From a virus (Duplodnaviria > Caudoviricetes), in IMG/VR virus record IMGVR_UViG_3300032282_000541, positions 1 to 55,227 of that record: DNA of 55,227 bases, one strand, 5' to 3'. Position 1 is the stretch's first letter. Each line of letters opens with the position of its first letter. The translations under genes and the position numbers were made by a program. The notes below the pieces were generated by a model that made no database searches, was not told the origin of the DNA, and saw nothing but the letters and a program-made list of their open reading frames with translations. Below are positions 29,247 to 45,244 of this stretch, piece after piece.

Positions 29247-30031
29247 GCACCATCATTGCCCGGTCGGCTGAATCAGTCCACTGGTACAAACAAGACGGAG
29301 GCCCACAGTACACCGTGAAGGCCAAAGACGGCTCAGACCGCCCCACGACCCTCAGGGACGCACGCAAGATGGACTTGGTGCCTTCGGTCACCACCGTCAT
29401 GAAAGTTGCCGCAAAGCCCGGCTTGGAGCAGTGGAAGCTGGAGCAAATGCTTTTGGCCTCCATGACCCTCACCCAGTTGCCCGGCGAAACAGAGCAAGCC
29501 TTCATTGCACGAATCGTTGCCGACTCTAAGGAGACGGGGAAGCAGGCCGCAGAAAAGGGCACGCGCATCCACGAGTCCATCGAATCATGGTTTGAAGGCA
29601 AGAAGGACGTTGTCCACAAGGACATCGCCATGGCGTTTGAAGAGTCCATCTTCACCCACTTTGGCACCCACCCGTTCCAGCCATGGCTGACAGAGCGGTC
29701 GTTCTCCAGCCCTCGGGGGTTTGGCGGCAAGGTGGACTTGTACTGTGAGCCTGATCAGCATGCACCCATGGGGATCGTGTTGGATGCCAAGTCAAAGGAC
29801 TTTGGCCCCGACGACAAGGTTGATGCCTATGACGAGCACCTGATGCAGTTGGCGGCATACCGCTATGGCCTCGGTGTGCCTTATGCACGCTGTGCAAACG
29901 TGTTTGTGTCTCGTAGTCACCCCGGCCTTGTGAAGGTCGTGGAATGGCCTGAGGCCGAACTGGTGAAGGGCTGGGAAATGTTCCAAGCATTGCTTCGCTT
30001 TTGGAAACTGAAAAATAACTTTGGAGTTTGA
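29243..30031 (+). CDS. PD-(D/E)xK exonuclease (Cas4-like/recombination)
   Basis: PSVTT, GTRIH, GKVD, LDAK, QLAAY. Confidence 0.85.
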   Translation: MSTIIARSAESVHWYKQDGGPQYTVKAKDGSDRPTTLRDARKMDLVPSVTTVMKVAAKPGLEQWKLEQMLLASMTLTQLPGETEQAFIARIVADSKETGKQAAEKGTRIHESIESWFEGKKDVVHKDIAMAFEESIFTHFGTHPFQPWLTERSFSSPRGFGGKVDLYCEPDQHAPMGIVLDAKSKDFGPDDKVDAYDEHLMQLAAYRYGLGVPYARCANVFVSRSHPGLVKVVEWPEAELVKGWEMFQALLRFWKLKNNFGV

Positions 30032-30032
30032 G

Positions 30033-30245
30033 ATGGCAGAACGTATTTATGTAGTCGGTGGCCCCACAGGTATCCACCTCATCAGTTCATCCACCAAGCA
30101 AGGCGCAATTGCTTATGTGGCTCACAACGTCTACAAGGCCACTGTAGCCACCCAGAATGATCTGGTTGAACTGTTGGGCAAGGGTGTGAAAGTCGAGCAC
30201 GCTAGAGCGCAAAACATGGACTTGGACTTTGGGGAAAACAAGTGA
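30033..30245 (+). CDS. Hypothetical protein
   Basis: MAERIYVV...VATQNDLV; GGAG RBS. Confidence 0.6.
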   Translation: MAERIYVVGGPTGIHLISSSTKQGAIAYVAHNVYKATVATQNDLVELLGKGVKVEHARAQNMDLDFGENK

Positions 30246-30484
30246 GCCTCAAGAAAGACGACGTGATCCAAGCCTTCTTTGCCGCTGGCCTTGAGGGTGA
30301 CTACAACTTCCTTGAAGACGATCTCATGAAGCTTGCAACGGCCTTTGCGGCCTTGCGAAACGAAGAGATCAACGAGAGGGTGTTCCGTACAGCCAAGTTT
30401 GAACGCTCACGCTGTGTAGAGTTCGTGCGAAGCCTCAACCCAGAGGTTGCACGAGCCCTTGAAGACAAGAAGTGGTCTCTGTAA
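30242..30484 (+). CDS. Hypothetical protein
   Basis: 80 aa; 4-nt overlap; ends at a terminator. Confidence 0.6.
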   Translation: MSLKKDDVIQAFFAAGLEGDYNFLEDDLMKLATAFAALRNEEINERVFRTAKFERSRCVEFVRSLNPEVARALEDKKWSL

Positions 30485-30509
30485 AAAAGCCCCCTCATCG
30501 GGGGGCTTC
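30483..30509. terminator. Terminator hairpin at the convergence of early and late operons
   Basis: AAAAAAGCCCCC-tcatc-GGGGGCTT. Confidence 0.7.
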
Positions 30510-30571
30510 AGAGGGGGCGTAAAAGGGGCAACTGCAATGCCCTCATATTGGCGAGACAACCAACATGATCT

Positions 30572-31825
30572 TTAAGGTCTTCCCTGTCCTGCTACTGTGC
30601 GTAAACCCTCAGCCGTTTGCTCAGGATGCTCAAACATTTCAGAGCCAGTAAACATATTGGGATCAGCAACATCGGGTAGGGTCATTCCCTTGTAAAGTTC
30701 ATCCCGATGTTTGTATGCCCAAGGCAATGTAGCCAATGCGCCAGCAGTGCCTGTCTTGCGACCTCCAAAAGTTTGAGCAAGGCTTCCAGCCAGACGAGAC
30801 CAATCTTGCCAATCAATTGGCTCTTTGTTTTTCCACTTTTGGTAAATGTCATATCCGCTCAAACCGGATTGAGCGCCACCAATTGTGCCCATAGCGGCTT
30901 TGCCTAAGCCCGAGCGATAACCTCTTGATTTTGAAAGGTCAGACTCCCTATTGATGGTTTGCTGAGACAAGCCAGCCTTGTTCAATTCGGATTGACGTTG
31001 AAGCTCCAAATTCTGGCGCTGTTGTTCAGTCTGAGCTTTGGCCTGCTGTTGAGCAATCTCTGTTGCAACATTTGTTGGTACTTGGATGCCACTCTTTAGC
31101 GGAACAACTTGTCCGGCTTGAACAATTGGATCAGGTGCATAAGGATTGATTTTGGAAACAGTGCGTTCTGTCTCGGCTTGATGACGTGCTCGACGTTGTT
31201 GCTCTGCGTTGTACCCATAGCCACGCTGTGCGCCTGTGGTGCCCATGGTTGGGCCTTCGCCACCTTGCAAGATGCGTTGCACTTGATCAGGTGTGAAATC
31301 AGTTATTTTGGCGTTGGGGTCTTGCGTTAGATTTCTGAGTTGCTCTTCAATCTTGTTGACAAGTGAATGCCTCTCTTTTATGTCGCCAACGGCCTCATTC
31401 ATTATGCGAATATTTTCTTCACTTGGCTTTGGAGAAAAAATATTGGTGCCTTGAGGGCTGGGTTTGAGGCCAGACTCAAAATCTCGACCAGTAAGGCGAG
31501 CCAAGACACCTGCCGTCGCACCACTTGCGGCGGCTATTTGTTTGTTGGAAAGAGTTTGAGCTTCTTCTTTTTTCTTCTCTTCTTCTTTTTGTTGTCTCTG
31601 AGCTTTTTCTAAAGCTTCTAGCACTTGATCGGCAATACTTTTTGGCGCACCACCTTCTTCGGCTGGTGGCTTGTTTTCAGCATTGGGTTCAGCAGAAGGG
31701 AGAGGCGCAGGTGGTTTTGCATGCCCACGTCTTACCTCAGGGGCATGCTTTTCGTCTTCGCTTTCAATCCCCTCTTCTTTCAGCCGGGCCTTGATTGCCG
31801 CTTTGATTTCTTCTTCTTCTGTCAT
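30572..31825 (-). CDS. Putative internal virion/ejection protein
   Basis: Last late gene; helical, Gly/Ala-rich amphipathic segments. Confidence 0.5.
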   Translation of the reverse strand: MTEEEEIKAAIKARLKEEGIESEDEKHAPEVRRGHAKPPAPLPSAEPNAENKPPAEEGGAPKSIADQVLEALEKAQRQQKEEEKKKEEAQTLSNKQIAAASGATAGVLARLTGRDFESGLKPSPQGTNIFSPKPSEENIRIMNEAVGDIKERHSLVNKIEEQLRNLTQDPNAKITDFTPDQVQRILQGGEGPTMGTTGAQRGYGYNAEQQRRARHQAETERTVSKINPYAPDPIVQAGQVVPLKSGIQVPTNVATEIAQQQAKAQTEQQRQNLELQRQSELNKAGLSQQTINRESDLSKSRGYRSGLGKAAMGTIGGAQSGLSGYDIYQKWKNKEPIDWQDWSRLAGSLAQTFGGRKTGTAGALATLPWAYKHRDELYKGMTLPDVADPNMFTGSEMFEHPEQTAEGLRTVAGQGRP

Positions 31826-33348
31826 GGTCTTTGACCTTTCAGGCTCTTGTGATATTTTGCGTTCTTGTCTTTTAGGATTCCCTCGTAGACACCGTTTTCA
31901 ATCTTGAGGTCTTTGCTTTGTCTGTAAATATCGTAATGAGGCGACAAGCTACCAGAGTCAATCACGGTAGGTAATGCATCAGAGATGATGTCGTGAATTC
32001 GTTTGGCGTGCTTCAACTGCTCAATGTTCAAGTCAACCTGATGAGCAATTGCTTTTGGATTCTTGTCGATGTGCATCTCTTGAAGCAAAAGCTGTTGAAA
32101 CTTGCCTTCGCCAGCCTTGGATGGATCAATGCCTCTAGCCAGCAATCCATAGTAAGCACTGGTTGCAAGGTTGTTGATCAGAGTGTCACGATAAGCTTGT
32201 TCATCTGCGCTGAGATTTGCGTCCAAGCCAGCAGTCACTGGAATGCCAATGTTCACGCCATAGCCGTTCCAGTTCACAGATAAGCCTTTTTCGAGCATTG
32301 CGGCAAGACCTCCCTGCTGGCGAATCAAATTTGTAACTTTCAGGAAGGTGGTTGGGTCGCTTCTGATTGCCTCTTGAACGGAGTTATTTGAAGATGTTGC
32401 AATTGCAAAATTCTGAGGATCGTTGACCAGTTGAAGCGCCTTGAACTGACGCTCTGGCTCTGCATTGGTTGATGCCGCAGTATCCAATACAGACTTGTTC
32501 CTTGCCTTCTCAATTTCAGTTACTGCCTGAGGATGAGGCAACACAAACGACGGCTTGTACTTAAACGCCGTTGTGCTTTCAGCAGGTTTTGTTGCTGTGT
32601 CGCTTGTGATTGGCGGTACGTTGGACGAAGAGGTTCCGGGTGCCGCATTAGGTGTCGCACCGGGTGCGCCGGGCAATCTGTCTGCCGCAGTGCCTGATGT
32701 ATCGCCGGGATAAACAGGTGGTCTTTCAGACTGTCGAGCGGCAATTGCGGCCATTCCGGCTTTGTACTGCTCCTCCGTGATCATTCCAGACCTACGCTGA
32801 CTTTCAAGCAAAACCATGTCTTGCTGTTGTTGTTGAACCAGCAATTGATTTTGAGCCGTTCTATTGGACATCAAAGTGTTCTGCTGTGTGCGTGCTTCTT
32901 TAACAGACTGTGCAACTTCAGAGTTGGGATCAAGCGAAATGATGCGAGTCGCAGTGGACTCATCCATTGGCTTGCCAGTTTTTTTCCAGTCTTGAAAGAG
33001 AGTGTTTTGGATTTTTCTTTGACCAAGCAAAATATTTGACTGCTCAATCTGAGCCTTCATTTGAGCAATGGGTAGTTGTTGAGCACGCTTTTGCTCAGTC
33101 TGCTCACCCAAAGCCTCAGCCGCACTACCAGCAGACGCAAGGAAGCCACCTAATTGAGGCTTGGCAAACCCTGCGGCCACTTTGAACCAATTTGGCTCTT
33201 GGTAGCGTTTTTCGAGTGCCTGAACACCCTCTTGCAGAATGCCTTGATACTTTTCTAATTTATCCTCGGGCAGTTCTGCTGGGTTGATCTTTCCAAGGCC
33301 ACCAGTAAAACTGTAGTCCTGTGGTTTTTGTTGGGTAGTTTCTGCCAT
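31822..33348 (-). CDS. Putative internal virion/ejection protein
   Basis: WFKVAAGFAKP..GGF Gly/Ala segment, Q-rich coiled coils, position in the operon. Confidence 0.6.
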   Translation of the reverse strand: MAETTQQKPQDYSFTGGLGKINPAELPEDKLEKYQGILQEGVQALEKRYQEPNWFKVAAGFAKPQLGGFLASAGSAAEALGEQTEQKRAQQLPIAQMKAQIEQSNILLGQRKIQNTLFQDWKKTGKPMDESTATRIISLDPNSEVAQSVKEARTQQNTLMSNRTAQNQLLVQQQQQDMVLLESQRRSGMITEEQYKAGMAAIAARQSERPPVYPGDTSGTAADRLPGAPGATPNAAPGTSSSNVPPITSDTATKPAESTTAFKYKPSFVLPHPQAVTEIEKARNKSVLDTAASTNAEPERQFKALQLVNDPQNFAIATSSNNSVQEAIRSDPTTFLKVTNLIRQQGGLAAMLEKGLSVNWNGYGVNIGIPVTAGLDANLSADEQAYRDTLINNLATSAYYGLLARGIDPSKAGEGKFQQLLLQEMHIDKNPKAIAHQVDLNIEQLKHAKRIHDIISDALPTVIDSGSLSPHYDIYRQSKDLKIENGVYEGILKDKNAKYHKSLKGQRP

Positions 33349-33351
33349 GGT

Positions 33352-34698
33352 TTAACCTTTCTTTTGTGGCAAAGCACCACGGTAGGTGGTTGAAGCACAG
33401 CCTGTGTAGCCACGAGCCTTTGATTTAATCAGGCCACCGCGAGCGGCAAATGCGCTACCGCCATAGCAACAGCAATAATCAAAATATCCCGGATCAACAG
33501 TTGAGTCATCAAAAGTTGAATCACCAAAACTTGAGTCGTCAGTTGGGTCTTGCATCCAACTTCCAGTGTTGTCGTTTATACCTGAGTCGTCAGTTGGGTC
33601 TTGCATCCAACCTCCAGTGTTGTCGTTTATTAACGAGCCGGGGTCTGCGCCTGCGCCTCCACCAAATATATTTCCAATCTTTGAAAAACCTTTATCCACC
33701 ACGTCCCTGAATCCGGGAATGCACTTGTACAGACCCATTGCCCCGGTTCCTGCGGCGGCAAGGCTTGATAGTGGTGACATGCACAGCGTGGTCTTGGTGC
33801 CCACTGGGATGCTGTAACCCTGCAACAGACTACCCAATGAAGCCAGCTTGGTCAATGGGTAGTTTTCTTCGTTCTGACCAATGGTCTGCTGTTGACCACC
33901 AAGGGTGGACAGAGCATTGATACAAGCCAAGTTCAGGCCAGCGCCAGTCTGCGCCAAGTTACCTATGTTTGTGCCTGCTGTATTCAGCAACTGGCCTTGG
34001 TTTGCCGCCGCTTGTGCCGCAGTAGAACCAGCAGTCAGGTTGGCTTGGTTTTGTGCTTGTTGGGCGGTGGATGTGGTGTTTGCAAGGTTGCCCAAAGCAC
34101 CTTGCTTGGCCGTAGCCGCTTGGAGCGCCTGAGCATACCCTTGGTTCTCCATGTTGGCGATCTGGGCGTTCAGGTCTTGCTGTGCCTGTGCATTGACTTG
34201 ACCCAGCACTTGGGCACCACGCTGTGAACCAAACTGTCCAGAGCCCACTGCCGCCGCTGTGGCCGCAGGAGATAAGTTATTGCGGATGTTGCGCTGGGCA
34301 ACGTCCGACATACCCTGCACAGCCGTCTGGATGTACGGGCTCATGTACTGAGATGCCAAGCATGAAAGGTTCAGGTTGGCGGTCTGGCAGATAAGGGGTC
34401 TGGCCGCGCACAAGGGGCTGGCATTGGTGCCTGCTTGCAAGTAGGGTGCGGCGGCACCAGTCACGTCCTGACCTGCCGCTTGGCCTATGTAGTTCTTACC
34501 CGTGGCAATGCTGGGTTGTTGCGCTCCAAAGTTCTGACAGACAGCCTCAAAAGCCTTTGTCTGTAAAGGCTGGGCACCTACGTAACACGCTTGCCCGGCG
34601 GCGGCTTGGCCTTGAGTGGCAAGGTTACTAAGGTAATTCGTGTAGTAACTGGGAGCCGTCGTTTCCTTGTTTTGTGACGATTGAAGTAAATTTGCCAT
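33352..34698 (-). CDS. Putative ejection (DNA pilot-like) protein, Cys-rich
   Basis: YMSPY...GQFGSQRG motif; Gln/Ala/Gly-rich; 12 Cys. Confidence 0.65.
   Translation of the reverse strand: MANLLQSSQNKETTAPSYYTNYLSNLATQGQAAAGQACYVGAQPLQTKAFEAVCQNFGAQQPSIATGKNYIGQAAGQDVTGAAAPYLQAGTNASPLCAARPLICQTANLNLSCLASQYMSPYIQTAVQGMSDVAQRNIRNNLSPAATAAAVGSGQFGSQRGAQVLGQVNAQAQQDLNAQIANMENQGYAQALQAATAKQGALGNLANTTSTAQQAQNQANLTAGSTAAQAAANQGQLLNTAGTNIGNLAQTGAGLNLACINALSTLGGQQQTIGQNEENYPLTKLASLGSLLQGYSIPVGTKTTLCMSPLSSLAAAGTGAMGLYKCIPGFRDVVDKGFSKIGNIFGGGAGADPGSLINDNTGGWMQDPTDDSGINDNTGSWMQDPTDDSSFGDSTFDDSTVDPGYFDYCCCYGGSAFAARGGLIKSKARGYTGCASTTYRGALPQKKG
33532..33630. repeat. 51-nt tandem duplication encoding INDNTG(G/S)WMQDPTDDS twice
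   Basis: Near-identical units starting at 33532 and 33583. Confidence 0.92.
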
Positions 34699-34700
34699 TT

Positions 34701-36647
34701 TTAACCTTTCGCTCCATTGATGTAGTCAAGTGGAGATTTTGCCTTTGGGGGAATTTTACTTGTGGGTGCTGATCTTTTGTGTGCCCTGAGTTTCTCACGA
34801 AGGCCGTCCAAAATCTTTGCACCCGCCTTGTTGTCACCGCCACCCAGAGCGGTCACAAATCCTTCTGGGAACACATACTCGCCATCTGCAATCTTTGCAG
34901 GTACAGGCTTGCCGCCACCAGTCTCTTTGTGAGGTACTTGGCTACGGAAGCTCTCAAGGACATCTTTACCAGCCTTGCTGGAGCCGTCGCCCAGTGCCGC
35001 CACCACGTCAGCGTCCATCACGTAGTCGCCATCGTGAAGCATGGCCGGAATTTCGTCTGATTGACCTGTACCGCCACCGCAAGCATAGAAACCAGTCAAC
35101 CCGGTTACAAACTCTGTGTTGTGACCTTCAGGTGCGGCCTCTCTGTACTTACTCGGCAGACCACCTTTAGCCAAGCCACCCATATTGCCCATAGGTGAAA
35201 TGTGTTGACTCATGTGTGAAAGCGGCTTCAAGCCCATTGCGGCACGACGCTGGGATGCAGTCGATGTCAATAGGTTTGCGGCGCAATCAGCAAATTTAGG
35301 CATGTACTTAGGATCATTGTTCAGGCAGAAACAAGTTGTTGTTCCACCTGAAGCAAATCCACTTGGGCTTGCAAAGTTTCCAGAGATTTGACTTCCAGTT
35401 TCATCAATATCCAGAGGCTTCAAAACGTCAGCAGAGTAATTTTTGCCGTACAGGGCCGCTTCTCTTTTTTTCTTTTCTAGCTCTTCTTCTGTCAAAGTAG
35501 TTTTGGTCAAGGCGTTTGGATCAAGCTTGTTCACCAGCATTTCTGCATCTGTGTTCAACCATGGGCTCATCACACTTGACAGGGATGAGTAGTCACCAGC
35601 GCCGCTTGATCCTTTTGATCCCGTTGACTTGCCTGTGCCTTTTTTCAGGAATGCGCTGGCATTGATGTTGGGCACATCGATGTTGTAGGCGCAAGAAGGC
35701 GTTGGAATGACCGCTTCACCAGTCACGTTGGGATTGTTGATGAATGATCCGGGATCACCCAGTGCAGGCTTGGCACTTTGATCAATGAACCCTGCGCCAC
35801 TGACAGTGCCCAAGGCACCTGTAGAGTAATCAGGATTGTTGATGAATGAATTGGGGTCGCCCAAAGGAGCGGAAGCATCAATTGAAAGCCCGGAAGCACC
35901 ACCCATGTTGCTCATTCCCGGCGCTTGCCCCATGATGCTATCCATGGTCAAGGTGTTGTAAGCACCAGCAGGATTCAATCCTTGCTCACTTGTGGGAATG
36001 TTGCTCTTATCACCAGTCAATGAGTAATCGGTTGGCTTTACATCCCAACTTGATTTGTCAAGAGGTTCATAGTCATCAGTACCCTCTGGAGAGTCATATG
36101 AGATATTTAAATCATCTTCATTCATTGATGGCGTATTCAACTCTGTAGCCGTTGCATCAGTGAGTGCATTAAATCCAGTATTCAGGCCGCTCATCAAAGC
36201 GCCTTGTCTAATATCTCCACCACGTAATCCTGCGGCGGTTGCTCCTGCGGCGGCGCTTCCAAGGGTTGCTGAAAGACCAGCGTTGATACCTTGATCAGTA
36301 AGTGCCGAGGAAAAAGATGAGCCCACGCCAGAGCCAATTTGCTGAGTTACGTATGAAACGCCAGCATTCAGTAGCGCCTTGTCAAGGGATTGACCATGAG
36401 CCACGCCATCGACAACGTTAACCGCAGGCAAGAGGTATGGCGCATAGACGGCGGCGGCAACCTTGGCCGCTGTACCAATTGGGTCTTTTCCTGCCGCTGT
36501 GATTGTGTTGTCTACAACCTGAACAACTGGCTGAAGGATTTCTCTATCTACTGTTTTTAAAACATCATCAGCCGCCTCGAACACATCTCCAACGGCATCT
36601 CCAACACCTTCAAAAACATCTCCAGCAAATTCAACCACTGCTCCCAT
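34701..36647 (-). CDS. Putative ejection protein with duplicated C-terminal PAxxxDGxYV domain
   Basis: Amphipathic N-terminus starting MGA; GGGTGQSDEIPAMLHDGDYV and PAKIADGEYV repeats. Confidence 0.62.
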   Translation of the reverse strand: MGAVVEFAGDVFEGVGDAVGDVFEAADDVLKTVDREILQPVVQVVDNTITAAGKDPIGTAAKVAAAVYAPYLLPAVNVVDGVAHGQSLDKALLNAGVSYVTQQIGSGVGSSFSSALTDQGINAGLSATLGSAAAGATAAGLRGGDIRQGALMSGLNTGFNALTDATATELNTPSMNEDDLNISYDSPEGTDDYEPLDKSSWDVKPTDYSLTGDKSNIPTSEQGLNPAGAYNTLTMDSIMGQAPGMSNMGGASGLSIDASAPLGDPNSFINNPDYSTGALGTVSGAGFIDQSAKPALGDPGSFINNPNVTGEAVIPTPSCAYNIDVPNINASAFLKKGTGKSTGSKGSSGAGDYSSLSSVMSPWLNTDAEMLVNKLDPNALTKTTLTEEELEKKKREAALYGKNYSADVLKPLDIDETGSQISGNFASPSGFASGGTTTCFCLNNDPKYMPKFADCAANLLTSTASQRRAAMGLKPLSHMSQHISPMGNMGGLAKGGLPSKYREAAPEGHNTEFVTGLTGFYACGGGTGQSDEIPAMLHDGDYVMDADVVAALGDGSSKAGKDVLESFRSQVPHKETGGGKPVPAKIADGEYVFPEGFVTALGGGDNKAGAKILDGLREKLRAHKRSAPTSKIPPKAKSPLDYINGAKG

Positions 36648-36648
36648 A

Positions 36649-37080
36649 TTAAGCTCCTAAATTCAAAACAATGCGTGTTTTGCCAGATTGCGATTTATAC
36701 ATTTGGTAACCCATGCCGGGCAACGGTGGACGCATTGCAATAATCTTGAACAACTGAGCCAACTGCGGATCATCAAATTCAGTGACAAGGACTTTCAAGT
36801 TCAAAACACGACGAGCCCAGACAACAAACTGTTTGCTGTTGTCAACAAAATTGGGTGGTATGTCAACGTTGAAGGCTTTGAAAAACCCTTGGCCGTCTTT
36901 GCCAGTATGAACTTCAAACAAAGTGTTTCCAATTTGTTGTACCTTGCAATTTGGTTGGCTCAACTCAGCCAAGATGGCAGGCATCACAACATTGTCAGGC
37001 TGAGGCTGAGGATTGTTCTTCAAGAAAATGCCAAGGATTTGACCTGAATCCAGTTCTTTGTCTTTTGAATCTACATACAT
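36649..37080 (-). CDS. Hypothetical alpha/beta protein (possible acyltransferase, by position only)
   Basis: 143 aa between the ketosynthase and the first ejection protein. Confidence 0.5.
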   Translation of the reverse strand: MYVDSKDKELDSGQILGIFLKNNPQPQPDNVVMPAILAELSQPNCKVQQIGNTLFEVHTGKDGQGFFKAFNVDIPPNFVDNSKQFVVWARRVLNLKVLVTEFDDPQLAQLFKIIAMRPPLPGMGYQMYKSQSGKTRIVLNLGA

Positions 37081-37081
37081 G

Positions 37082-38197
37082 TCATAACTCCGTTGTCATT
37101 ACTGCCGCTGAATACACGTTGCCCATGCCAGCCGCCAACGACAGAATGGCACCCTTGGGTGCATCAACGTCATGCGACAAAAACACGTCATCTTCTTGAG
37201 TTCTATTCGGGATGCCGGGCACAAACCCACTGTTCATATTGTCGATCAGTAAGCATGTTTCTAGCAACCCGCTCACGCCCATGGTGTGGCCGATCACCTG
37301 TTTGTAGGATGTCGCCACAAAATCCTTGAATACCGACTCAATGGCGTTTCTCTCTGCCTTGTTGTTTGACTTGGTGCCAGTTCCGTGGGTTTTGATCACC
37401 GCCACGCACTCCGGAGACAGTTTTGCCATATCCAGAGCGCCCTTAGCGGCCCGGATAAAGCCTTCGCCACTCTCAGCCTGCCCAATGGCATTGGCGTGGG
37501 CTTCTGAGGCCGTGTAGGCACCCAAAAGCCGCCCCTTTGGTATGACTGCACGACGTATCACCGTCGCCTCGTCCTCAAACACCGCCAAGCAGGCTCCTTG
37601 GCCTACGTGGAAGCCGCCGTTGACACTGTCAAAGGCTGAGGGCTTGACACCCTCTTTTTCGTCTTTCCACGCCAGCGAGGCTTGGGCTTCGCCAAAGAAG
37701 TTCAGGGTGAGGTTGCTGACCTGATCCTCGACGGCCAGCACCACCACCCGGTTGAAGCCATAGAACCGCATCAGGGTCTGCACATCCATGAGCACCTTCA
37801 TGCTGGAAGCGCAGGCGCTGGAATCGGTCACGATGTGGTCGGATGCGCCAAAAGCTTGGGCTGTACGGCCTGCATAGACCTGAGTCAACGTCAGTGGCAA
37901 GAACTTGTACTCGTAGATCAGCGAGTTGGGCTCAGACTTGATCGGGTTGATCCCGGCAAAGTGAGCATTGCCGGAAGCAAGAATGAACGCCGTTTTGGCT
38001 TCTTTGTCTTCCCTGATCGACGTTGCCAAGTCTTTGTCCAACACCTTGTCGGCCACCCGGTGGGGCACATAGAACAGGCCAGTCTTGATCCTGTCGTAGG
38101 TTTCTGGGAACCAATTGACGACCTGAGGATATTTGATGTCCTCAAGCAGTTTGGTCTCGGTGGTGGATGCCAGTCGGTAGTCGCTGAGATAAATCAT
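37082..38197 (-). CDS. Beta-ketoacyl-ACP synthase (FabF/FabB-like)
   Basis: Catalytic SSACASS, HGTGT and K..IGH motifs; FD...GF..GQGA. Confidence 0.92.
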   Translation of the reverse strand: MIYLSDYRLASTTETKLLEDIKYPQVVNWFPETYDRIKTGLFYVPHRVADKVLDKDLATSIREDKEAKTAFILASGNAHFAGINPIKSEPNSLIYEYKFLPLTLTQVYAGRTAQAFGASDHIVTDSSACASSMKVLMDVQTLMRFYGFNRVVVLAVEDQVSNLTLNFFGEAQASLAWKDEKEGVKPSAFDSVNGGFHVGQGACLAVFEDEATVIRRAVIPKGRLLGAYTASEAHANAIGQAESGEGFIRAAKGALDMAKLSPECVAVIKTHGTGTKSNNKAERNAIESVFKDFVATSYKQVIGHTMGVSGLLETCLLIDNMNSGFVPGIPNRTQEDDVFLSHDVDAPKGAILSLAAGMGNVYSAAVMTTEL

Positions 38198-38475
38198 TTG
38201 ATCATCTCCATGGCGGCTTCGATGGACTCACACTCGCGCTTTTTGTTGACTTGGATGAAGTCAAACAGTTCTTGCGGAGTGGTTGGGTGGTAGTCAGTTG
38301 CGACAGCGTCGTCAATGTCGTAGATGATTGCAAAGTACATCACAATCATCAGGCCATCTAAAGAGTCGATCTCCGTCTCTGTGAATGGCTCCTCCATGCT
38401 TTGCAATGGAGTCAGGTCTTGGTGAGACGGTTTGGTAAACCTCGCCACCTTGTTGAGTAAGTCAAGAAAATTCAT
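38194..38475 (-). CDS. Acyl carrier protein
   Basis: 93 aa, acidic; EIDSLD phosphopantetheine-site motif; adjacent to the ketosynthase. Confidence 0.85.
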   Translation of the reverse strand: MNFLDLLNKVARFTKPSHQDLTPLQSMEEPFTETEIDSLDGLMIVMYFAIIYDIDDAVATDYHPTTPQELFDFIQVNKKRECESIEAAMEMIK

Positions 38476-38708
38476 TGTGCCCCCACATTCATAATGCCTG
38501 TCATTTGTTCAGCCCACTCGTACCAGAACTCATATCCACGGTGATCAGGAACACCTGATTGGACAAAGTACCCAATACCATTTAGGCCATCAACCCACTG
38601 TCGCCAGTTTTCTTCTTCTACGTACCCCAACTGGTTAGGGGCAAACAACTCGGCCATCAATTTGCAGTATTGATCCCAAGTCATCCCTCTCGGATCGTAG
38701 GCAATCAT
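38472..38708 (-). CDS. Small Trp-rich tail-operon protein
   Basis: 78 aa; overlaps both neighbours. Confidence 0.65.
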   Translation of the reverse strand: MIAYDPRGMTWDQYCKLMAELFAPNQLGYVEEENWRQWVDGLNGIGYFVQSGVPDHRGYEFWYEWAEQMTGIMNVGAQ

Positions 38709-40981
38709 TATGGATTACCTGTTCCGCGCACATCGCCTGTATCCAAACTCAACAATGTTCGACCCATGAAGTAATCGCCATTTTGTGTGTTGCTTCGGAA
38801 CTTTAAGCGCATCTCGCGTCTTTGCTCTTTCATGTCAATTTTAAGCGTAGTGTTTGCAAAGACGTATGGCTCGGAAGGATCGTCAACGTCGTCAGCGTAG
38901 GATTTACCCGTTACCACCACTTCCATGTCGCCTACCTGAACAAAGTCAGGTTCAATCCGCTCGCATCGTGTCCACACGTTATCACCGGGTTGCTCTACAG
39001 CACCCACAAGACCCGCACGAGCGCCAATCACATTGGTCTCAAAGAACGAGTCAATTGCGTTCACACGGTTGGTATAAACCTCATTTGTGCCAGTTTCGTG
39101 TTGCCACAAGGTGTACTGTCCCGCCGTGTTCTCGACGTTACCAGCCCAAATAGGCCGACGGAACACTTCAGAAAACACACCAGCAGAGCGATAAGCGCCC
39201 AAAGCTTGACCTGCGTCATACCAAACCTTCTCTCTCACGTTGTAAATAATTGCATCATTGCATTCTTCACTGTCGCCGGACGGAAAGAACCACCAAATCT
39301 CACCCCAGCGCGGCACCTTGCTAACCCATACCTTTTGGCGCTGTCTGTAGTTCAAGTTGTCAAAAAAGTAGTTGAAGTTCTGCTTGTTGTCCAACTCCTG
39401 AACCACACCGTTGTAGGTCAAGAATCGGTCTGTTCCGCACCAGTAAAAAATGCCGTCATATTCAATAACGCACTGGCTGGACAGGATTGATGACTGTTGG
39501 GTGATCAGGTCGTACTTCCAATAAAAGGTCTGGTTGCCCACAGTGGTCGGTGCATAGGTCACCCGTACCACTGAGTCCAATGTCCAAAATAGGCCAGCAG
39601 GAGACGTTGTGCCGCCCCTCAGAGGCAGTCCCTTGACCACTTTGGTGGATGACACGTTGTTCTTGTTGGAGTCGGCTGAAGTCCAGTTGCTGAAATCTCC
39701 TGCCGCGCTGTTGGCAATGTAGCCGTAGTTGCCATAGGCAAACAGGTATGGGAACAGCATCACGATGCCACCAGACACTTCAATGTTGTTGTCAAAGGTC
39801 AATGTTGCATAAGCACCAAAAGTCAGGCCAGTGGTTGTGCCTGCGGTTGTGGTGATTGCGGTGCCGCCAAACGTCGCCGACAAGGTGAATGTGCTCGTTG
39901 TGTTGGTGGTAATTACGTAATACGTACCAGCGGCAATGCCTGTGGCGGTGCCTGTTAACGTGCCTGTAACGACAACCGTTTGACCAACTGCAATGTTGGT
40001 GGTTGCTGTACAAGAGAATTGACCAGCAGTGCCAGTAACAGCAACAGAGGCCAATACTGCACTTGGTGTAGACGCAGTGGCATTCCTGCTCAATGTTGCC
40101 GTCCAAACGCCAGTAACTTCTAAGGCAGACAAAACAGTGGTGCCTGTGGGGATGCCCGTACCAGTCACGGATACGCCAGCGCCGATAGCCGCAATTGTTG
40201 TTGGGAAAGTGACAGTAGGCGATCCACTTGTGGTGGTGCCCGTTGCTGTGAACACCCCCACAGGATTTAATGTTGACCCTGCAAATGGGCCAAACATAGG
40301 TCGAGAGTTTATTGAGGACGAAATGTCATTGAGGTTTTGACCGGGGTGAGCGATCAAATTGTTGTCGCCATTTCCCAGTGCGTCATATCCAATGTCAAAC
40401 TGCCACAGTGTGTTATCGCTTGGAGCGTAGGTAGTCAAATCGTTAACGTAGGAGGCAAACCCAGAGCCAGCGCCGCCAATACTTGCATTGTTGATGGTGA
40501 TAGCCCCATTGTGGACGTAATCAATACCAGCCGTGGTTACAACCACACTGAAAACCAAATTACCTGCAACTACCACGGTAGCAAGAGCCCCTGTACCCGA
40601 TGTAGCAACTAAAGGAACACTGGTGTACGTTCCATTGACATAACCTGTGCCTTGATTGGTGATTGTGATTGTTTCCAAAGGGCCAGTCGGCTCAATTGGT
40701 ACTGGGCCAAAGCCCACACCATTGTCGTTATCGGTCGTCCACTGTTCTATGCCGTTGTTGTATCCAGATATTACATAGTTGAGGCCGTCCTCGGCACTCA
40801 TAATCATTCCGCGACTGATACCTGTTGCATCCAAAAAAGCCCCAATGTAGCCACCTATCTTGCGTGGTCGGCTGTATTGGAATCTCACCCATTTTCCGTC
40901 CACATAACTCACAGAGGCAAACTGCGTGCTATCTCTTTGGATGCCCGGGCCAACTTGTAACGTGACGACTTTTGCGGTCAT
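38708..40981 (-). CDS. Tail nozzle/stabilisation protein (P22 gp10/T7 gp12-like)
   Basis: 757 aa, beta-rich; VRF...RPRKIGG, EIWWFFPS, IYN..E.VW; Thr-rich inserted domains. Confidence 0.72.
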   Translation of the reverse strand: MTAKVVTLQVGPGIQRDSTQFASVSYVDGKWVRFQYSRPRKIGGYIGAFLDATGISRGMIMSAEDGLNYVISGYNNGIEQWTTDNDNGVGFGPVPIEPTGPLETITITNQGTGYVNGTYTSVPLVATSGTGALATVVVAGNLVFSVVVTTAGIDYVHNGAITINNASIGGAGSGFASYVNDLTTYAPSDNTLWQFDIGYDALGNGDNNLIAHPGQNLNDISSSINSRPMFGPFAGSTLNPVGVFTATGTTTSGSPTVTFPTTIAAIGAGVSVTGTGIPTGTTVLSALEVTGVWTATLSRNATASTPSAVLASVAVTGTAGQFSCTATTNIAVGQTVVVTGTLTGTATGIAAGTYYVITTNTTSTFTLSATFGGTAITTTAGTTTGLTFGAYATLTFDNNIEVSGGIVMLFPYLFAYGNYGYIANSAAGDFSNWTSADSNKNNVSSTKVVKGLPLRGGTTSPAGLFWTLDSVVRVTYAPTTVGNQTFYWKYDLITQQSSILSSQCVIEYDGIFYWCGTDRFLTYNGVVQELDNKQNFNYFFDNLNYRQRQKVWVSKVPRWGEIWWFFPSGDSEECNDAIIYNVREKVWYDAGQALGAYRSAGVFSEVFRRPIWAGNVENTAGQYTLWQHETGTNEVYTNRVNAIDSFFETNVIGARAGLVGAVEQPGDNVWTRCERIEPDFVQVGDMEVVVTGKSYADDVDDPSEPYVFANTTLKIDMKEQRREMRLKFRSNTQNGDYFMGRTLLSLDTGDVRGTGNP

Positions 40982-42201
40982 TAGAACGCTCCACCAACAA
41001 TCCCTACGGGCAAACGCAATCCTGTTGAGGCCAAGGTTCCAGCATTTACGCCAGCAACTGCAAAGCCAAGCTGATTACTGGCGGCTTGATACAAACCAGT
41101 CGTTGGGCTGGATGCAAACGACAACGATGGTGCGGCGGCAGAACCATTACCCAATGTCAATGCATTGATTGACGAAGATGTTGATGTTTGTGCGTTGTAG
41201 ACGTTTGTGCCATCGCAAATTGCAATGATCGTTTGATTCTGTGGCAATACAACCGTTGTGCCCCCAACTACACCAGTAGTGAAAGTTAACGTATATGAGC
41301 CAGTCGTATTGTTTTGTAAAGAATACAACTGCACAGTTGGAGGAAGCACCACGGTGCAGTTTGATACTAAGGCACCTTGGTACTCTTGAATGATGTTTGC
41401 GCCTTCTGCTGAAGTCAACGTCACAGTACCGCCAGTCACCGACTTAGCGAGTTGAGTGAAGAAGAACGTCGCAGATTGTCCGTAACCATAACTAAAGTAA
41501 TTCAAGCCATCAGAAACCACCACAAACGATTCGGCAATTTGAAGTTGTGCGCTTGAATTTCCATCAATGGTGTTGGAGCCCACAAGGGCTACATTCAAAA
41601 TGCCAGTGCCGTTGTTTTTGATCACAACGTACCAGCCTTCACCTACTGTTACTGCGTTGGGTAGTGTGACCGTACCAGCACCACCAGTCCACGCATAAAG
41701 GGATGATTGATCTACTGGCAACAAACTGTAGTTTGAAGAAAAAGTTGAAACCAACGTAGAGGTATTCAGCGTAGTAGAAATGGCCGTGAGGCCGTATCCA
41801 GCCAGTGTGGCGGCGTTGGCCGAGGATGTGCCTGCGCCAAAGGTTACGCTCTCCCAAGAGCCATTAACAGTCGTGTTGTCCGTGACGTAGATGTACTCAG
41901 AAATACCTGAAGCAATTGACACAATAGTGTTGCCGCCAGTATCCACCACGGTGAAAGAATAAGAGCCAATGTTGCGGATCAGCACACTTTGACCTGTAGA
42001 CACCGAAGTCGCAGGCGGCATGTACAGTTTTAAGTTTGTGTTGAGGGTCGCTGTGACTTCAATGATGTTGGCAACAACGTTGTCAGTGTTGCCGTTGATC
42101 GGCCATTGAAGTTCGGTGTCGGCGCTAATCGACAGGCTCTCATAACCCACCTGAGATGGGCTGATCGTTTGACCTGTGTATGGGTTTATGTAACTTGTCA
42201 T
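40981..42201 (-). CDS. Tail protein
   Basis: Beta-rich repeats, CDGTNV, GSAAAPSLSF..TTGLY. Confidence 0.7.
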   Translation of the reverse strand: MTSYINPYTGQTISPSQVGYESLSISADTELQWPINGNTDNVVANIIEVTATLNTNLKLYMPPATSVSTGQSVLIRNIGSYSFTVVDTGGNTIVSIASGISEYIYVTDNTTVNGSWESVTFGAGTSSANAATLAGYGLTAISTTLNTSTLVSTFSSNYSLLPVDQSSLYAWTGGAGTVTLPNAVTVGEGWYVVIKNNGTGILNVALVGSNTIDGNSSAQLQIAESFVVVSDGLNYFSYGYGQSATFFFTQLAKSVTGGTVTLTSAEGANIIQEYQGALVSNCTVVLPPTVQLYSLQNNTTGSYTLTFTTGVVGGTTVVLPQNQTIIAICDGTNVYNAQTSTSSSINALTLGNGSAAAPSLSFASSPTTGLYQAASNQLGFAVAGVNAGTLASTGLRLPVGIVGGAF

Positions 42202-42203
42202 TT

Positions 42204-42842
42204 TTATGAGTCCACGGCAATGGCTTGACGATCACCAACTCGCGCAATATCTTCTGCTTTAAGAGATTGGAGCGCCTCGGTGTACTTTTGCTGAAAGATT
42301 GTGCGCTGGTCGTTCTTGAGGAACTGCATCGCCTGCAACAGGGTGCCAAACAACATAGCGTTTGGGGCGTTTTGGGTGAGCCAATTGGTTTGATTGGCAG
42401 AACTCAATGGGGAGATGCGCTCATAGTAAAGCACCTCAAAGTCGTAGTTTGTATCAGGTGTGGGTGCCAAGTACCAGTGCTCCCAATCGGTATCTGCGTA
42501 GTACAAAGGCACATCGGTCTCAGTATCGTCAGGCCAGTAGTTCTTCAGATACTCGTACTTGCGAAGGTAGACAGGCTGTTTCTTGCCGCTCACTTTGACG
42601 CTCATAGATACAGTCTTGCGCCACCGAGCAGGCTTTTGCAAGATGGGGTTGTCCGGGGTCATTGAGGCTTCGACTACTTGCAATTGACCCAGCGTCTTGA
42701 TCTCCTGAGCAATTTCAAACTCAGCCAGCGAGATGAAGGTGGGAATTGCATCAACAACAGAGGCATCTTTACGCTCCAAGTACTGAAGTACCGTGGAGGT
42801 CAAGCTGTCGTAAGTCATCACCCATGATGGGATTAGTGTCAT
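42204..42842 (-). CDS. Head-tail adaptor/tail tubular protein
   Basis: TYDSL...IPTFISLAE...LAPTPD...NWL...P..LFGTL. Confidence 0.72.
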   Translation of the reverse strand: MTLIPSWVMTYDSLTSTVLQYLERKDASVVDAIPTFISLAEFEIAQEIKTLGQLQVVEASMTPDNPILQKPARWRKTVSMSVKVSGKKQPVYLRKYEYLKNYWPDDTETDVPLYYADTDWEHWYLAPTPDTNYDFEVLYYERISPLSSANQTNWLTQNAPNAMLFGTLLQAMQFLKNDQRTIFQQKYTEALQSLKAEDIARVGDRQAIAVDS

Positions 42843-42854
42843 TGCGTCGTCCCT

Positions 42855-43196
42855 TTATCCAACATTGCGCTCAAAGTGAGGGCAGTCAACAAGTGATTTG
42901 AAGTTGCCTCCCCAGCGATTCTTGGGGTGCAGTGACTCCCAATATACGCCCAGTGGAGCAAGCATCTCCTTGTCCCAGATTATCTTCCCTGCCTTGAAAA
43001 AGTTCAAATCAATGGCGCACCGCTTCAGGTGGATTGAGTTGAGGGTCTTGGAACGGCCTGTTTTGACGTATATGGCCTGTTGTTCGGGTGTCCGGGCCAA
43101 CTCCCCACCAGTGACCATGAAACCCTGTGCGGTGGCGTATTCGATCAGTTTGCAGGCATCTAGCAAGAAAGCCGCTTGTTCTGTGTTCAGGCTCAT
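42855..43196 (-). CDS. Endolysin, peptidase M15 family
   Basis: R..EQQ, S.H....AID, WGG.F..VDCPHFE. Confidence 0.88.
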   Translation of the reverse strand: MSLNTEQAAFLLDACKLIEYATAQGFMVTGGELARTPEQQAIYVKTGRSKTLNSIHLKRCAIDLNFFKAGKIIWDKEMLAPLGVYWESLHPKNRWGGNFKSLVDCPHFERNVG

Positions 43197-43414
43197 TTTT
43201 CTTCCTCATCATGGGATAGTTTCACGCCAGCCAACAACCCAATAAAACCGCCCACAATGGTTTGAAATGCAGGGCTAATCAGTTTAAAGATTTCAGCGTT
43301 GTCCACTTTTTCGTCAAACAATCCTGTCATCAAAACGCCAACCATGCTAAGGATGACAACGCACAAAGTGAAGCTGACCATCAAGGTCACAAAGAAAGTT
43401 AACTTGGCTTTCAT
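43193..43414 (-). CDS. Two-TM membrane protein (lysis cassette)
   Basis: Two hydrophobic helices. Confidence 0.6.
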   Translation of the reverse strand: MKAKLTFFVTLMVSFTLCVVILSMVGVLMTGLFDEKVDNAEIFKLISPAFQTIVGGFIGLLAGVKLSHDEEEK

Positions 43415-43920
43415 TTCTTCCTCATTTCTGCCAGCTTCTCAACCGTGCGACCGCCAAAGTAGGCACCCATGATCAGCATGCCCCAGTTGCCCAGTAAAGT
43501 GACGTAGGACTCGTTGGCGTTGTAATTAAAGGCTGACATCATGGCAAATAAGAAGTAGCCCACAAAGATTGCTATGAGGCTGATAGGGCGTATGTTTTTA
43601 GACAGCCAAGAGTCAGATGCCATATCCGCTTCCCAGCGGTCTGTGATGTTGTCAGCATCGTTCTGGGCGGCTTTTGCCAACAGATCAAGTTCGGCTAATT
43701 CCATCTTGGCTTTTTCAATGCCCAGCTCAAGTAATCGTTCTTCATGGTCAAATTGAAGCTGGCGCAGCTTGGCGACATCCTCAGGTGTAGGGTTATCAGG
43801 GATTTTCACGCCCAAAGTGTTTTCAACAACTTCCTTGCCTTTGGCTTGGATAGCGCTGGAAAGCAGCCCCAGACCGTTCTGGGCAAGACTACCTAAAAGG
43901 GACGCAAGTATTGGCAACAT
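43411..43920 (-). CDS. Holin (3TM, GTA-type)
   Basis: SDSWLSKNIRP...YFGGR motif with TM helices. Confidence 0.8.
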   Translation of the reverse strand: MLPILASLLGSLAQNGLGLLSSAIQAKGKEVVENTLGVKIPDNPTPEDVAKLRQLQFDHEERLLELGIEKAKMELAELDLLAKAAQNDADNITDRWEADMASDSWLSKNIRPISLIAIFVGYFLFAMMSAFNYNANESYVTLLGNWGMLIMGAYFGGRTVEKLAEMRKK

Positions 43921-44078
43921 TATTTTTCCTTTGCTTTGTCAATCAATTTTTGAACAGTTTGCTGCTGTTGTTTGGTCTGCTCTCGTACTTCCAAAATATC
44001 AAAGTACAGCATTGCCATCAAAGGCAAAAGCACACCAAACACAGCAACCATAGCAATTAAAGCAATCAGAAACCCCAT
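43920..44078 (-). CDS. Small single-TM membrane protein
   Basis: MGFLIALIAMVAVFGVLLP...; start at the internal Met of the 43920..44201 frame. Confidence 0.5.
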   Translation of the reverse strand: MGFLIALIAMVAVFGVLLPLMAMLYFDILEVREQTKQQQQTVQKLIDKAKEK

Positions 44079-44605
44079 TTCGCTATCCTCATCTGTCGGA
44101 TTGCTAGAAACATTAGGTGGAGGTATATAAAAACTATTACCACTCCCGCTATTAGAAGCGCCCTGTCTTGTAGTTGGTTTAGCATTTTTCTGCGTTGCCA
44201 TGCCACTACCCTTTCTTTGGCCTCTTGCGCTAGTCTCTCCTGATCTTGTTCAGCCTGCAATCTTTCAAACTCATTTTGAAACCGTGACCAGACCGCGCCC
44301 AATGCCGGATCAACGCCGTAAATCAACAGTTCCCTTAACTCAGTGGCTTGGCGCTCCAACTCCATCTCTTGAAAGATATTGTCCAGTGCCTGCGCTTTTA
44401 ATGACTTACCCTTTGGCGGGTTTTTCTTTTGTTCGGCGGCGGCGGTTTTGACTTGTTCATGGGCATCGAAAAATTTGCCGATGTGACCAGAAATTTCCAT
44501 TGTGATGGAGGTGACATCCTTAGCGACCGACTTTGCATCCTTGTAAAGCGCCACACCTTGTTTAATTGCGGCAATGGCGGCAAGTGCAAGTGTGAAAGGA
44601 TCAAT
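44066..44605 (-). CDS. Coiled-coil membrane protein, possible ATT start
   Basis: The frame extends upstream of 44554 to IDPFTLALAA at 44605; C-terminal TM segment. Confidence 0.6.
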   Translation of the reverse strand: MDPFTLALAAIAAIKQGVALYKDAKSVAKDVTSITMEISGHIGKFFDAHEQVKTAAAEQKKNPPKGKSLKAQALDNIFQEMELERQATELRELLIYGVDPALGAVWSRFQNEFERLQAEQDQERLAQEAKERVVAWQRRKMLNQLQDRALLIAGVVIVFIYLHLMFLAIRQMRIAKWGF

Positions 44606-44803
44606 TTAGAGCCCCAAGAGTTTCTTGACAAATTCACCGGCAACGCCAGGGCCAAACAACACGCAAATCATGACCGCATACAGCAAGTATTCAATCTTGG
44701 TCATGCGCTTGTCGCCCTCTGCCAAAGTTTTTTGAATGGCCTCGTACCGTTGGGCGCAAATGGCCTCATGCACGGCAAACTCTATTTCAAGTTCATCACT
44801 CAT
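44606..44803 (-). CDS. Small coiled-coil plus TM protein
   Basis: HEAICAQRY...RMTKIE then a TM helix. Confidence 0.65.
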   Translation of the reverse strand: MSDELEIEFAVHEAICAQRYEAIQKTLAEGDKRMTKIEYLLYAVMICVLFGPGVAGEFVKKLLGL

Positions 44804-45232: not shown

Positions 45233-45244
45233 GATTGCTCCTGA

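Follow-up and report, generated by a model that had tools for sequence, protein, structure and literature searches.

Among bacteria, toxins and injection machines are known whose proteins receive lipids by way of dedicated carrier proteins. HlyC-type enzymes move acyl chains from acyl-acyl carrier protein (acyl-ACP) to lysines of RTX toxins, and the classical RTX systems use the housekeeping ACP and are not known to have a private ACP or ketosynthase (KS) of their own. Here, the viral record IMGVR_UViG_3300032282_000541 (Duplodnaviria; Caudoviricetes) was analysed over its whole length of 55,227 bases (hereafter the window); it has direct terminal repeats and its completeness is rated 100%. 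Within an operon of virion genes it encodes a private ACP, a KS and a small protein of the GNAT fold, one directly after the other. This ACP-KS-GNAT cassette is conserved and is not ordinary metabolism. Its three products very probably form one acyl-ACP-dependent transfer pathway; that this pathway is self-contained and lipidates an internal virion (ejection) protein is a reading, drawn from sequence and predicted structure, to which roughly even chances are given.

The closest described systems each share a part of this arrangement. RTX activation by HlyC and CyaC, the toxin-activating acyltransferases (TAATs), resembles it in the acyl-ACP donor, in a small acyltransferase encoded by its substrate gene and in a substrate that engages membranes, but the phage acyltransferase is a canonical small GNAT and its proposed substrate would be an internal virion protein, not a secreted toxin. 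The GNAT-ACP-KS loading modules of the CurA type bring together the same three domain types; the GNAT of CurA decarboxylates malonyl-ACP to prime the KS and uses a His and a Thr. The window differs from them in its separate small proteins in the order ACP-KS-GNAT, in the lack of an invariant His among 39 aligned GNAT sequences and in the absence of a downstream assembly line. The CdiC-CdiA pair is similar in lipidating a protein with a membrane target, CdiC appending 3-hydroxydecanoate to a CdiA lysine (PMC8510554, in part). In the type III translocon that Salmonella encodes on its pathogenicity island 1 (SPI-1), IacP is a dedicated ACP for the acylation of SipB (PMC5279801, in part); there, too, the genes of an injection machine come with a private ACP, and acylation promotes membrane insertion of the perforating component, but the modified residue is a cysteine, the system is bacterial and not viral, and neither a KS nor a GNAT is named in the available part of that source. 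Rhizobial NodE and NodF make a special acyl chain (PMC9048898, in part) and correspond to the window in having a private ACP and KS without a full fatty-acid synthase, and in a dedicated N-acyltransferase, NodA, that acts on an amine; the acceptor is a chito-oligosaccharide there.

A small GNAT between tail and internal virion protein genes, in the slot of T7 gp13, also occurs in cobavirus pc40 and as gp35 of Roseobacter phage CRP-902, and unexplained GNATs beside internal virion proteins are on record for cobaviruses (PMC6775973, in part) and in PMC8477408 (in part). A preliminary description of the present DNA had named a GNAT-fold protein as frequent in this slot of podoviruses, which the cobavirus paper echoes in the part available. 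These phages differ from the window in lacking an ACP or KS, and their GNAT sequences are not detectably related to the window family. In CRP-902 (locus L208, 8472–10349), gp35 has 144 aa and is followed by a 480-aa protein starting MGGF, with neither ACP nor KS nearby, and it was not detected by the hidden Markov model (HMM) of the window GNAT family. A literature search found no description of a phage ACP-KS-GNAT cassette or of lipidated phage ejection proteins; the single paper found on acpP/fabF in phages deals with predicted prophages whose fabG-acpP-fabF operons are host-like (PMC8224337, in part).

The large open reading frames (ORFs) of the window lie nearly all on the minus strand. 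Past the lysis genes, the minus-strand order, without real gaps, is a 212-aa virion protein, the tail-fibre-like g406 and then the genes listed here, window proteins being named by their length in amino acids (aa; g406, g757, g78, g648, g448):

38708–40981, minus strand: g757, virion structural protein, 5' of the cassette (phrog_3287, E 5.6e-22)
38472–38708, minus strand: g78, 78 aa (35% identity, E 1e-06, in Caulobacter phage GB2A)
38194–38475, minus strand: the predicted 93-aa ACP (fold, family profile)
37082–38197, minus strand: the 371-aa KS (Pfam, alignment with solved FabF)
36649–37080, minus strand: the 143-aa GNAT-fold protein (AlphaFold2 model, fold searches)
34701–36647, minus strand: g648, 648 aa, translation starting MGAVVEFAGDV...
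33352–34698, minus strand: g448, 448 aa, Gln/Ala-rich, 12 Cys including CCC near the C-terminus, no family match
31822–33348, minus strand: 508-aa protein of the same operon, kept in close relatives
30572–31825, minus strand: 417-aa protein, with which the operon ends ahead of a terminator-like hairpin

The genes are joined by TAATG at 38708, by ATGA overlaps at 38472–38475 and 38194–38197, by later spacers of 1–3 nucleotides and by a final 4-nucleotide overlap of the ATGA type. The terminator-like hairpin 3' of the last gene (30504–30490) is the only strong site on the minus strand within 29500–45500. The IDSLD motif, the Cys-His-His motifs, the AGMGN loop, the gene overlaps, the Met-Gly start and the Cys-rich protein (12 Cys) named in the preliminary description were each found in the sequence. 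Its remark that phosphopantetheinyl transferase (PPTase), reductase and dehydratase are missing also holds, as six-frame Pfam scans of the whole genome returned no PPTase (PF01648), short-chain reductase (PF13561) or FabA/Z (PF07977) domain, nor a FabD-type (PF00698) or AMP-binding (PF00501) domain.

The association of the three genes was assessed on 184 loci from three viral scans and one genome scan; L001, L015 and L103–L112 were set aside and duplicates removed, leaving 147 unique KS loci. An ACP gene adjoins the KS gene directly upstream in 138 of 140 readable loci, and a GNAT gene adjoins it directly downstream in 111 of 134. Viewed from the GNAT side, for the best 80 of 175 matches, the KS lies directly upstream in 66 of 68 unique loci, and the two exceptions are fragments that are 9% and 22% complete. 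The ACP-KS-GNAT synteny, which the preliminary description had proposed as a check, is thus conserved far beyond close relatives. Where no GNAT adjoins the KS (23 of 134 loci), about 18 loci have a layout among early genes, 2 are bacterial RTX loci and 3 are others (L094, L095, L144). Two of the latter, L095 (7657–9128, on an 89.8-kb contig of a Rhodocyclaceae metagenome-assembled genome, MAG) and L094 (441–1843, Nitrosomonadaceae, 2.6 kb), carry ACP-KS pairs 61–62% identical to that of the window, without GNAT, with a GIY-YIG nuclease and genes of bacterial appearance as neighbours; either remnants of prophages or artefacts of binning may account for them. The third, L144 (5277–9299), belongs to another phage type and has an ACP-like ORF, a 147-aa ORF, a KS of a distant subclade and then a 723-aa protein; the ACP-KS pair also occurs in other genome architectures.

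Four lines of evidence agree that the 93-aa protein is a very divergent ACP. Its Ser38, within EIDSLDG, is the predicted phosphopantetheine site, and its isoelectric point (pI) is 4.26. The AlphaFold2 model, built with 32 sequences, has a predicted local distance difference test (pLDDT) score of 92.7 and places helix II at residues 38–51, beginning at Ser38; Asp37 and Ser38, at the start of this helix, are invariant in the 32 sequences. Model, alignment and profile together give the four-helix carrier fold with the Asp-Ser-Leu signature. Carrier proteins made up 49 of the 50 Foldseek matches listed (best E 0.13) and all 50 matches listed by VIA (Z up to 8.0, root-mean-square deviation (rmsd) 2.2–3.3 Å over 67–82 residues), scores that are modest, as is to be expected with a helical protein of 90 residues. 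At E≤10, a profile of ten sequences retrieved 42 solved sequences, 41 of them ACPs (best E 0.012), with DSLD aligned on DSLD; a single-sequence search of solved structures gave chance-level matches only. Pfam returned no match for the protein, which stays short of the cut-off for PP-binding (PF00550); a single member among 32 of the family touches PP-binding (E 0.18), and the bacterial homologue of locus L101 reaches E 0.0074, also under the cut-off. Some database homologues already bear the name 'acyl carrier protein', and the ESM Atlas places the protein among viral clusters without family names, next to one ACP-like cluster with PP-binding in 11% of its members.

The KS exceeds the Pfam cut-off of 20.8 bits with both of its domains (Ketoacyl-synt_C, PF02801, E 2.9e-17, 63.2 bits; ketoacyl-synt, PF00109, E 4.1e-06, 27 bits), and its closest solved relative is S. 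pneumoniae FabF (E 4.6e-23), with about 27% identity over residues ~99–340 only. In the alignment with solved FabF, the phage motifs ACASS, HGTGT and GHTMG pair with the catalytic Cys and the two His of that enzyme; all 123 of the 123 family members compared have Cys129, His271 and His304, and at least 97% have Lys299, which stands five residues ahead of the second His and is presumably the equivalent of FabF Lys335. Domains and catalytic residues place the enzyme in the Cys-His-His (KAS I/II-like) class, and with FabF and FabB (KAS II and KAS I) it has in common the thiolase-fold condensing enzyme, the Cys-His-His-Lys set and both Pfam domains. It differs from them in its length (371 versus about 410 aa), in an N-terminal region of about 100 residues that is family-specific and does not align, in its separate clade and in its C-terminal loop. 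The FabF loop reads GFGG, given as FGFGG in the preliminary description, with the Phe as gatekeeper residue; that of the phage KS reads AAGMGN, with all four positions of GMGN kept in 121 of 123 members and G357, M358 and G359 in 122. The enzyme therefore shows neither the full-length alignment nor the loop nor the placement of a housekeeping FabF/FabB.

A search of 1.84 billion cluster representatives with the KS gave 9,437 matches at E≤0.001, only 50 of them at E≤1e-30. The full-length proteins among these 50 have 344–389 aa, cover KS residues 1–367 and are down to 28% identical; the remainder includes fragments and a 6,344-aa synthase (P0364). Weaker matches are giant polyketide synthases and FabF-like proteins of about 400 aa that align in the core only, and library and PDB matches outside the family span only residues ~99–350. 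A tree of 69 hand-picked sequences, calculated by a quick method with the SH-aLRT (Shimodaira–Hasegawa-like approximate likelihood ratio test) as its one measure of support, gathers the family in a single clade (100%), which a long branch sets apart from 15 FabF-like sequences. Recent capture of a host fabF/acpP pair, an origin that the preliminary description had listed among the outcomes that would refute its proposal, is ruled out by this separate clade and by the core-only identity to FabF: the KS is not nested within host FabF and represents a deep, separate family. At least 544 viral contigs encode a relative. A tblastn search of 50,697 phage records, in which KS and GNAT served as queries along with a family member of 332 aa, found a single carrier of the family, the metagenome-assembled MW202545.1. 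Records of Listeria, Enterococcus and Staphylococcus at 24–27% identity were rejected as carriers, as they look like host FabF on unannotated contigs. A viral-contig search for the contexts of distant KS members returned only the main clade again. If confirmed, this would be a KS-ACP family without earlier description, defined by the phage-centred KS.

The 143-aa protein gave the result that had been predicted for a fold search on 36649–37080, namely a GNAT/acyltransferase, and AlphaFold2, Foldseek and VIA agree on it. The AlphaFold2 model (39 sequences) has a pLDDT of 93.0 and the element order H H E E E H E H E E. Foldseek found 45 PDB matches at E≤0.001, all listed rows being N-acetyl- or acyltransferases, and VIA gave a Z of 11.9 to HP0935 (a protein acetyltransferase) and to RimI, with an rmsd of 1.9 Å over 115 residues; numerous further GNATs score no more than 2 Z units lower (Z 10–11.9 over 115–127 residues). 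TAAT structures are absent from the 50 VIA matches listed for the GNAT, which does not exclude a resemblance. None of 169 homologues carries a Pfam domain, none of 39 family members matches an acetyltransferase Pfam family at E≤1, and a single-sequence search of solved structures gave chance-level matches only. The ESM Atlas assigns the protein to a DUF2824 cluster at 0.94, and PF11039 (DUF2824) was not found in the six-frame Pfam scan of the genome. The invariant residues N71, D73, T100 and G51-N52-T53 cluster round strands β4 and β5, with N71, D73 and T100 at the strand ends. Motif A of GNATs, at the CoA pyrophosphate, is defined as Q/R-x-x-G-x-G/A; read by eye, it is not visible in the 39 sequences, in which the β4-α3 loop reads N-A/V-D-x-x-x-N without a conserved Gly pair. 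The missing CoA motif would fit a donor bound to a carrier protein, which is only suggestive. Weak support comes from the charge fit between the acidic ACP and the GNAT, with its pI of 8.71. A complex prediction of the two, both entered as alignments and run without controls, scored 0.28 against a mark of 0.32 and speaks neither for binding nor against it.

Members of the KS family also occur in bacterial MAGs, mostly of Betaproteobacteria, where a second setting was found; these matches point to Burkholderiales such as Polaromonas as hosts of the phages. Two Burkholderiales MAGs (L100 and L101) encode a full-length family member 46% identical to the window KS, and these form their own subclade within the family (99% support). 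Their loci and that of a metagenome contig, which likewise has a full-length family member, are arranged as follows:

L101, 3799–7550: weak HlyC-like protein (E 4.5e-07), ACP-like protein, KS, HlyC family protein (E 5e-21), RTX-repeat protein (E 1.3e-28)
L100, 7483–14361, on an 890-kb contig: ACP-like protein, KS, HlyC (E 2.4e-18), outer-membrane efflux protein, 158-aa ORF, RTX-repeat protein (E 2.1e-44)
L185, 539–2766, metagenome contig: HlyC-like protein (E 0.0018), ACP-like protein, KS, HlyC (E 1.4e-21), contig end

With a HlyC-type acyltransferase directly after the KS-ACP pair on all three contigs and RTX-repeat proteins further on in two, this is a second, independent setting in which the family has a protein acyltransferase and a membrane-active substrate for partners. 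The preliminary description had not foreseen it, and it adds to the support for protein acylation. RTX loci with a private ACP and KS were not found described.

Two contrasts bear on the link between the GNAT and the gene that follows it. One 30-kb contig (L098/L107), the one early-region contig on which both ACP-KS and GNAT were readable, has ACP-KS after a SNF2 helicase and the GNAT (E 4.3e-33) 17 kb away, in the order g757-like, g78-like, GNAT, protein starting MSAVVEFVGDV. On this contig the GNAT stays with the downstream protein gene when the cassette splits, and therefore appears tied to the g648-type gene. The second contrast is Caulobacter phage GB2A; the closest relatives in culture, the Caulobacter 'Riverwalk' phages, number four and are near-identical (PMC11053796, in part). 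GB2A keeps g406, g757 (gp067c, 44% over 360 aa), g78 (35%), g448 (gp064c, 26%, E 1e-14) and the C-terminal g648 repeats (gp065c); it has no ACP, KS or GNAT, and gp065c, its counterpart of g648, starts differently (MMGDEILVVD...). By these gene contents g78 is part of the tail/virion module and not of the acyl cassette, because it is kept in GB2A without ACP, KS and GNAT and lies 5' of the GNAT in L107, where ACP-KS are elsewhere.

The g648 protein combines a conserved M-[G/S/A]-A-V-V start, acidic repeats of the VGDVVE type, a hydrophobic stretch at residues 61–79 and a C-terminal double repeat. Within this C-terminal part (34701–35200), two copies of a DG-Y-V-x5-V-x-ALG-G-x4-G-x3-L-like repeat were noted, and the repeat region is the only part of g648 common to gp065c of GB2A (52% over 57 aa). 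A weak tape-measure match (phrog_6090, E 0.0038) was obtained for g648, and none to any family for the 448-, 508- and 417-aa proteins. The slot of these four past the tail genes and before the terminator fits internal virion proteins, a role assigned from position and composition alone. By these features g648 is a probable internal virion (ejection) protein and the proposed acyl acceptor, and g448 is likewise a probable internal virion protein. Among the 117 unique loci with an adjoining GNAT, the next ORF was readable in 103; its residue 2 is S in 46, G in 43, A in 9, P in 4 and F in 1, so that G, S or A is found in 98 of 103, usually followed by A-V-V, acidic VGDVVE-like repeats and then a hydrophobic stretch. 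The Met-Gly start noted in the preliminary description is therefore not a conserved feature, and the idea of an N-myristoylation-type signal was dropped, since Gly2 occurs in only 43 of the 103 homologues. The small residue 2 was kept: by the specificity of methionine aminopeptidase, G, S and A in this position permit removal of the initiator Met, which exposes the α-amine.

From these elements the following mechanism is proposed. A host PPTase would activate the phage ACP at Ser38, which fits the absence of a PPTase from the phage genome. The phage KS would then load or extend an acyl chain on the private ACP, while host FabD, FabG, FabZ and FabI would perform the remaining steps; rhizobial NodF/NodE are likewise thought to rely on the host fatty-acid enzymes FabD/G/Z/I (NodA, in turn, is presumably not a GNAT). 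The basic GNAT would take the acyl group from the acidic acyl-ACP and pass it on to g648, the M-[G/S/A]-AVV protein of the next gene downstream, at an amine group, most likely the α-amine exposed once the initiator Met is gone, with a lysine as the alternative. The lipid would finally aid entry of g648 into the host envelope at genome ejection. In mechanism, this comes nearest to HlyC acylation of RTX toxins from acyl-ACP and to the acylation of SipB with IacP. In its most far-reaching form, the proposal holds that uncultured phages of a widespread clade fatty-acylate the N-terminus of an ejected internal protein with a tailor-made chain, built on a phage ACP by a phage KS, and that KS-ACP is a general supplier to protein acyltransferases including those of the HlyC type; in this form it is considered rather doubtful.

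Several observations weigh against lipidation of an ejection protein. No result shows an acylated protein of any kind, the identity of g648 as acceptor is taken from gene order alone and its ejection role is unproven. Its hydrophobic stretch is moderate (Kyte-Doolittle 1.38), Gly2 is not conserved and Pro occupies residue 2 in 4 of 103 cases. The ACP falls below all Pfam thresholds. In about 18 of the 134 readable loci, ACP and KS come after a helicase (identified as SNF2 by Pfam for L047 only) and before a series of small genes of early type; the records concerned, other than the L098 contig, are 18–43% complete and the GNAT was not searchable in them. The claim that the genes form a late module needs changing, as the ACP-KS pair is not late throughout. 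The bacterial parallel probably represents a single lineage (L100, L101 and L185, the last outside the tree) and is rare: among 401 genomes sampled from the bacterial order to which L100 belongs, the KS was found in the starting genome and in no other. The GNAT family profile shows no sequence relation to the HlyC-family (PF02794) protein of L101 (hhalign probability 0.3), and the parallel is therefore one of analogy, not homology. The comparison with GB2A involves one phage species, as the isolates are near-identical. Finally, slot GNATs of podophages such as CRP-902 gp35 and those of cobaviruses occur without ACP-KS, so that a GNAT in this place does not by itself need acyl-ACP. Taken together, the lipidation proposed in the preliminary description is partly supported.

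The alternative that survives best, in itself unlikely, keeps the acyl-ACP pathway and assigns it an acceptor outside the virion. To protect the infected cell or reprogramme it, the GNAT would place the acyl group on a component of the host envelope, on a protein of the host or on a small molecule such as an amino acid or polyamine, the last yielding an N-acyl amide or signal. Among the nearest folds are SpeG, PseH, the aminoglycoside and phosphinothricin acetyltransferases and the long-chain acyltransferase domain of NcdE, which would suit such acceptors, as would the ACP-KS pairs among early genes and the lack of direct evidence for a protein acceptor. However, the protein N-terminal acetyltransferases RimI, Ard1 and Naa60 are also top structural matches, within 1–2 Z units; the GNAT remains tied to the M-[G/S/A]-AVV gene even where ACP-KS are elsewhere; in GB2A, which has no GNAT, the counterpart protein starts differently; and the bacterial relatives of ACP-KS are paired with protein acyltransferases.

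A quite improbable second explanation separates the parts, the GNAT being an ordinary morphogenesis or acetyl-CoA-dependent GNAT of the T7 gp13 slot and ACP-KS a mobile unit inserted nearby. Precedents for such a GNAT exist in CRP-902 and in the cobaviruses (PMC6775973, in part), and ACP-KS does move as a pair, with no adjoining GNAT in the 23 of 134 loci mentioned above. The near-constant presence of the KS directly upstream of the GNAT family (66 of 68 loci) speaks against independent parts, as do the CoA pyrophosphate motif that is not visible in this family and the lack of detectable relation to the CRP-902 GNAT, for which the HMM gave no match.

That the genes are an auxiliary metabolic module boosting or redirecting host fatty-acid synthesis, with the GNAT and virion genes as irrelevant neighbours, is very improbable. 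The condensing active site of the KS is complete, and fabF/acpP-type genes are listed as auxiliary metabolic genes in predicted prophages (PMC8224337, in part), but the prophages shown in that source have the host order fabG-acpP-fabF, unlike the window. The KS, at about 27% identity to FabF over residues ~99–340 only, has its own N-terminal region and a distant clade; it travels with a private and highly divergent ACP in nearly all readable loci (138 of 140); and the six-frame scans found no other fatty-acid synthesis enzyme in the phage genome. On the same grounds of a separate KS clade, a private divergent ACP and no further fatty-acid synthesis enzyme, the statement in the preliminary description that this is not an ordinary metabolic gene pair was borne out. 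A purely structural or assembly role in the virion, without catalysis by the KS-like and ACP-like proteins, could be suggested by their place in a structural operon and by the ACP scores below family thresholds. It is barely credible, since even in sequences of only about 30% identity the catalytic Cys, both His and the Lys never vary, nor does the Asp-Ser of the ACP, and the pair also occurs outside structural modules.

Beyond the cassette, the window showed neither a tail tube or sheath nor a clear tape-measure protein, though this does not fix the morphology of the phage. Tail-fibre-like proteins are among its PHROG matches, together with the following:

484–1398: head protein/protease-like ORF (PHROG match)
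4449–6902: portal (PHROG match)
12421–13857: terminase large subunit (PHROG match)
25174–26703: helicase (PHROG match)
42855–43196: endolysin (phrog_465, E 1e-15)
43411–43920: holin (phrog_3427, E 2.8e-14)

The holin and endolysin genes (42855–43920) interrupt the run of structural genes midway, with the tail-fibre genes on one side and the cassette block on the other. A 1296-aa protein (6899–10789) between the terminase side and the portal gene has a single match, an endolysin-like region at residues 222–358 (phrog_7348, E 2.2e-06), and may be a large virion-associated wall-degrading protein. Beside the head genes, a 151-aa ORF (3595–4050) has its match in a family of GroES-like co-chaperonins (phrog_3188, E 5.1e-07). 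Among phage records in GenBank, MW202545.1 alone is similar at the nucleotide level (71% over 81% of a 3-kb query), and its gene order is the same as in the window. Its counterpart of g757, a protein that the preliminary description called a nozzle and that matched nothing beyond phrog_3287 ('virion structural protein'), is annotated 'phage stabilization protein', and its gene at the slot of the 417-aa protein is annotated as an SLT transglycosylase, with weak similarity (34% over 62 aa). In more distant cassette phages (L012, 6678–7694; L014, 3967–4983), a 338-aa ORF with a reverse-transcriptase-like YCDD motif lies just 5' of tail-fibre-like genes and could be part of a diversity-generating retroelement.

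If confirmed, these results would define a KS-ACP family on at least 544 viral contigs. If lipidation of the internal virion protein is true, the small GNAT genes that often stand beside internal virion protein genes in podophages would gain a function open to testing, with a first clue to the GNAT of the gp13 slot, and the N-myristoylated proteins with which animal viruses penetrate membranes would have their counterpart in bacterial viruses. Phages would then, should the proposal be confirmed, chemically arm the proteins that they inject in order to cross the host envelope.

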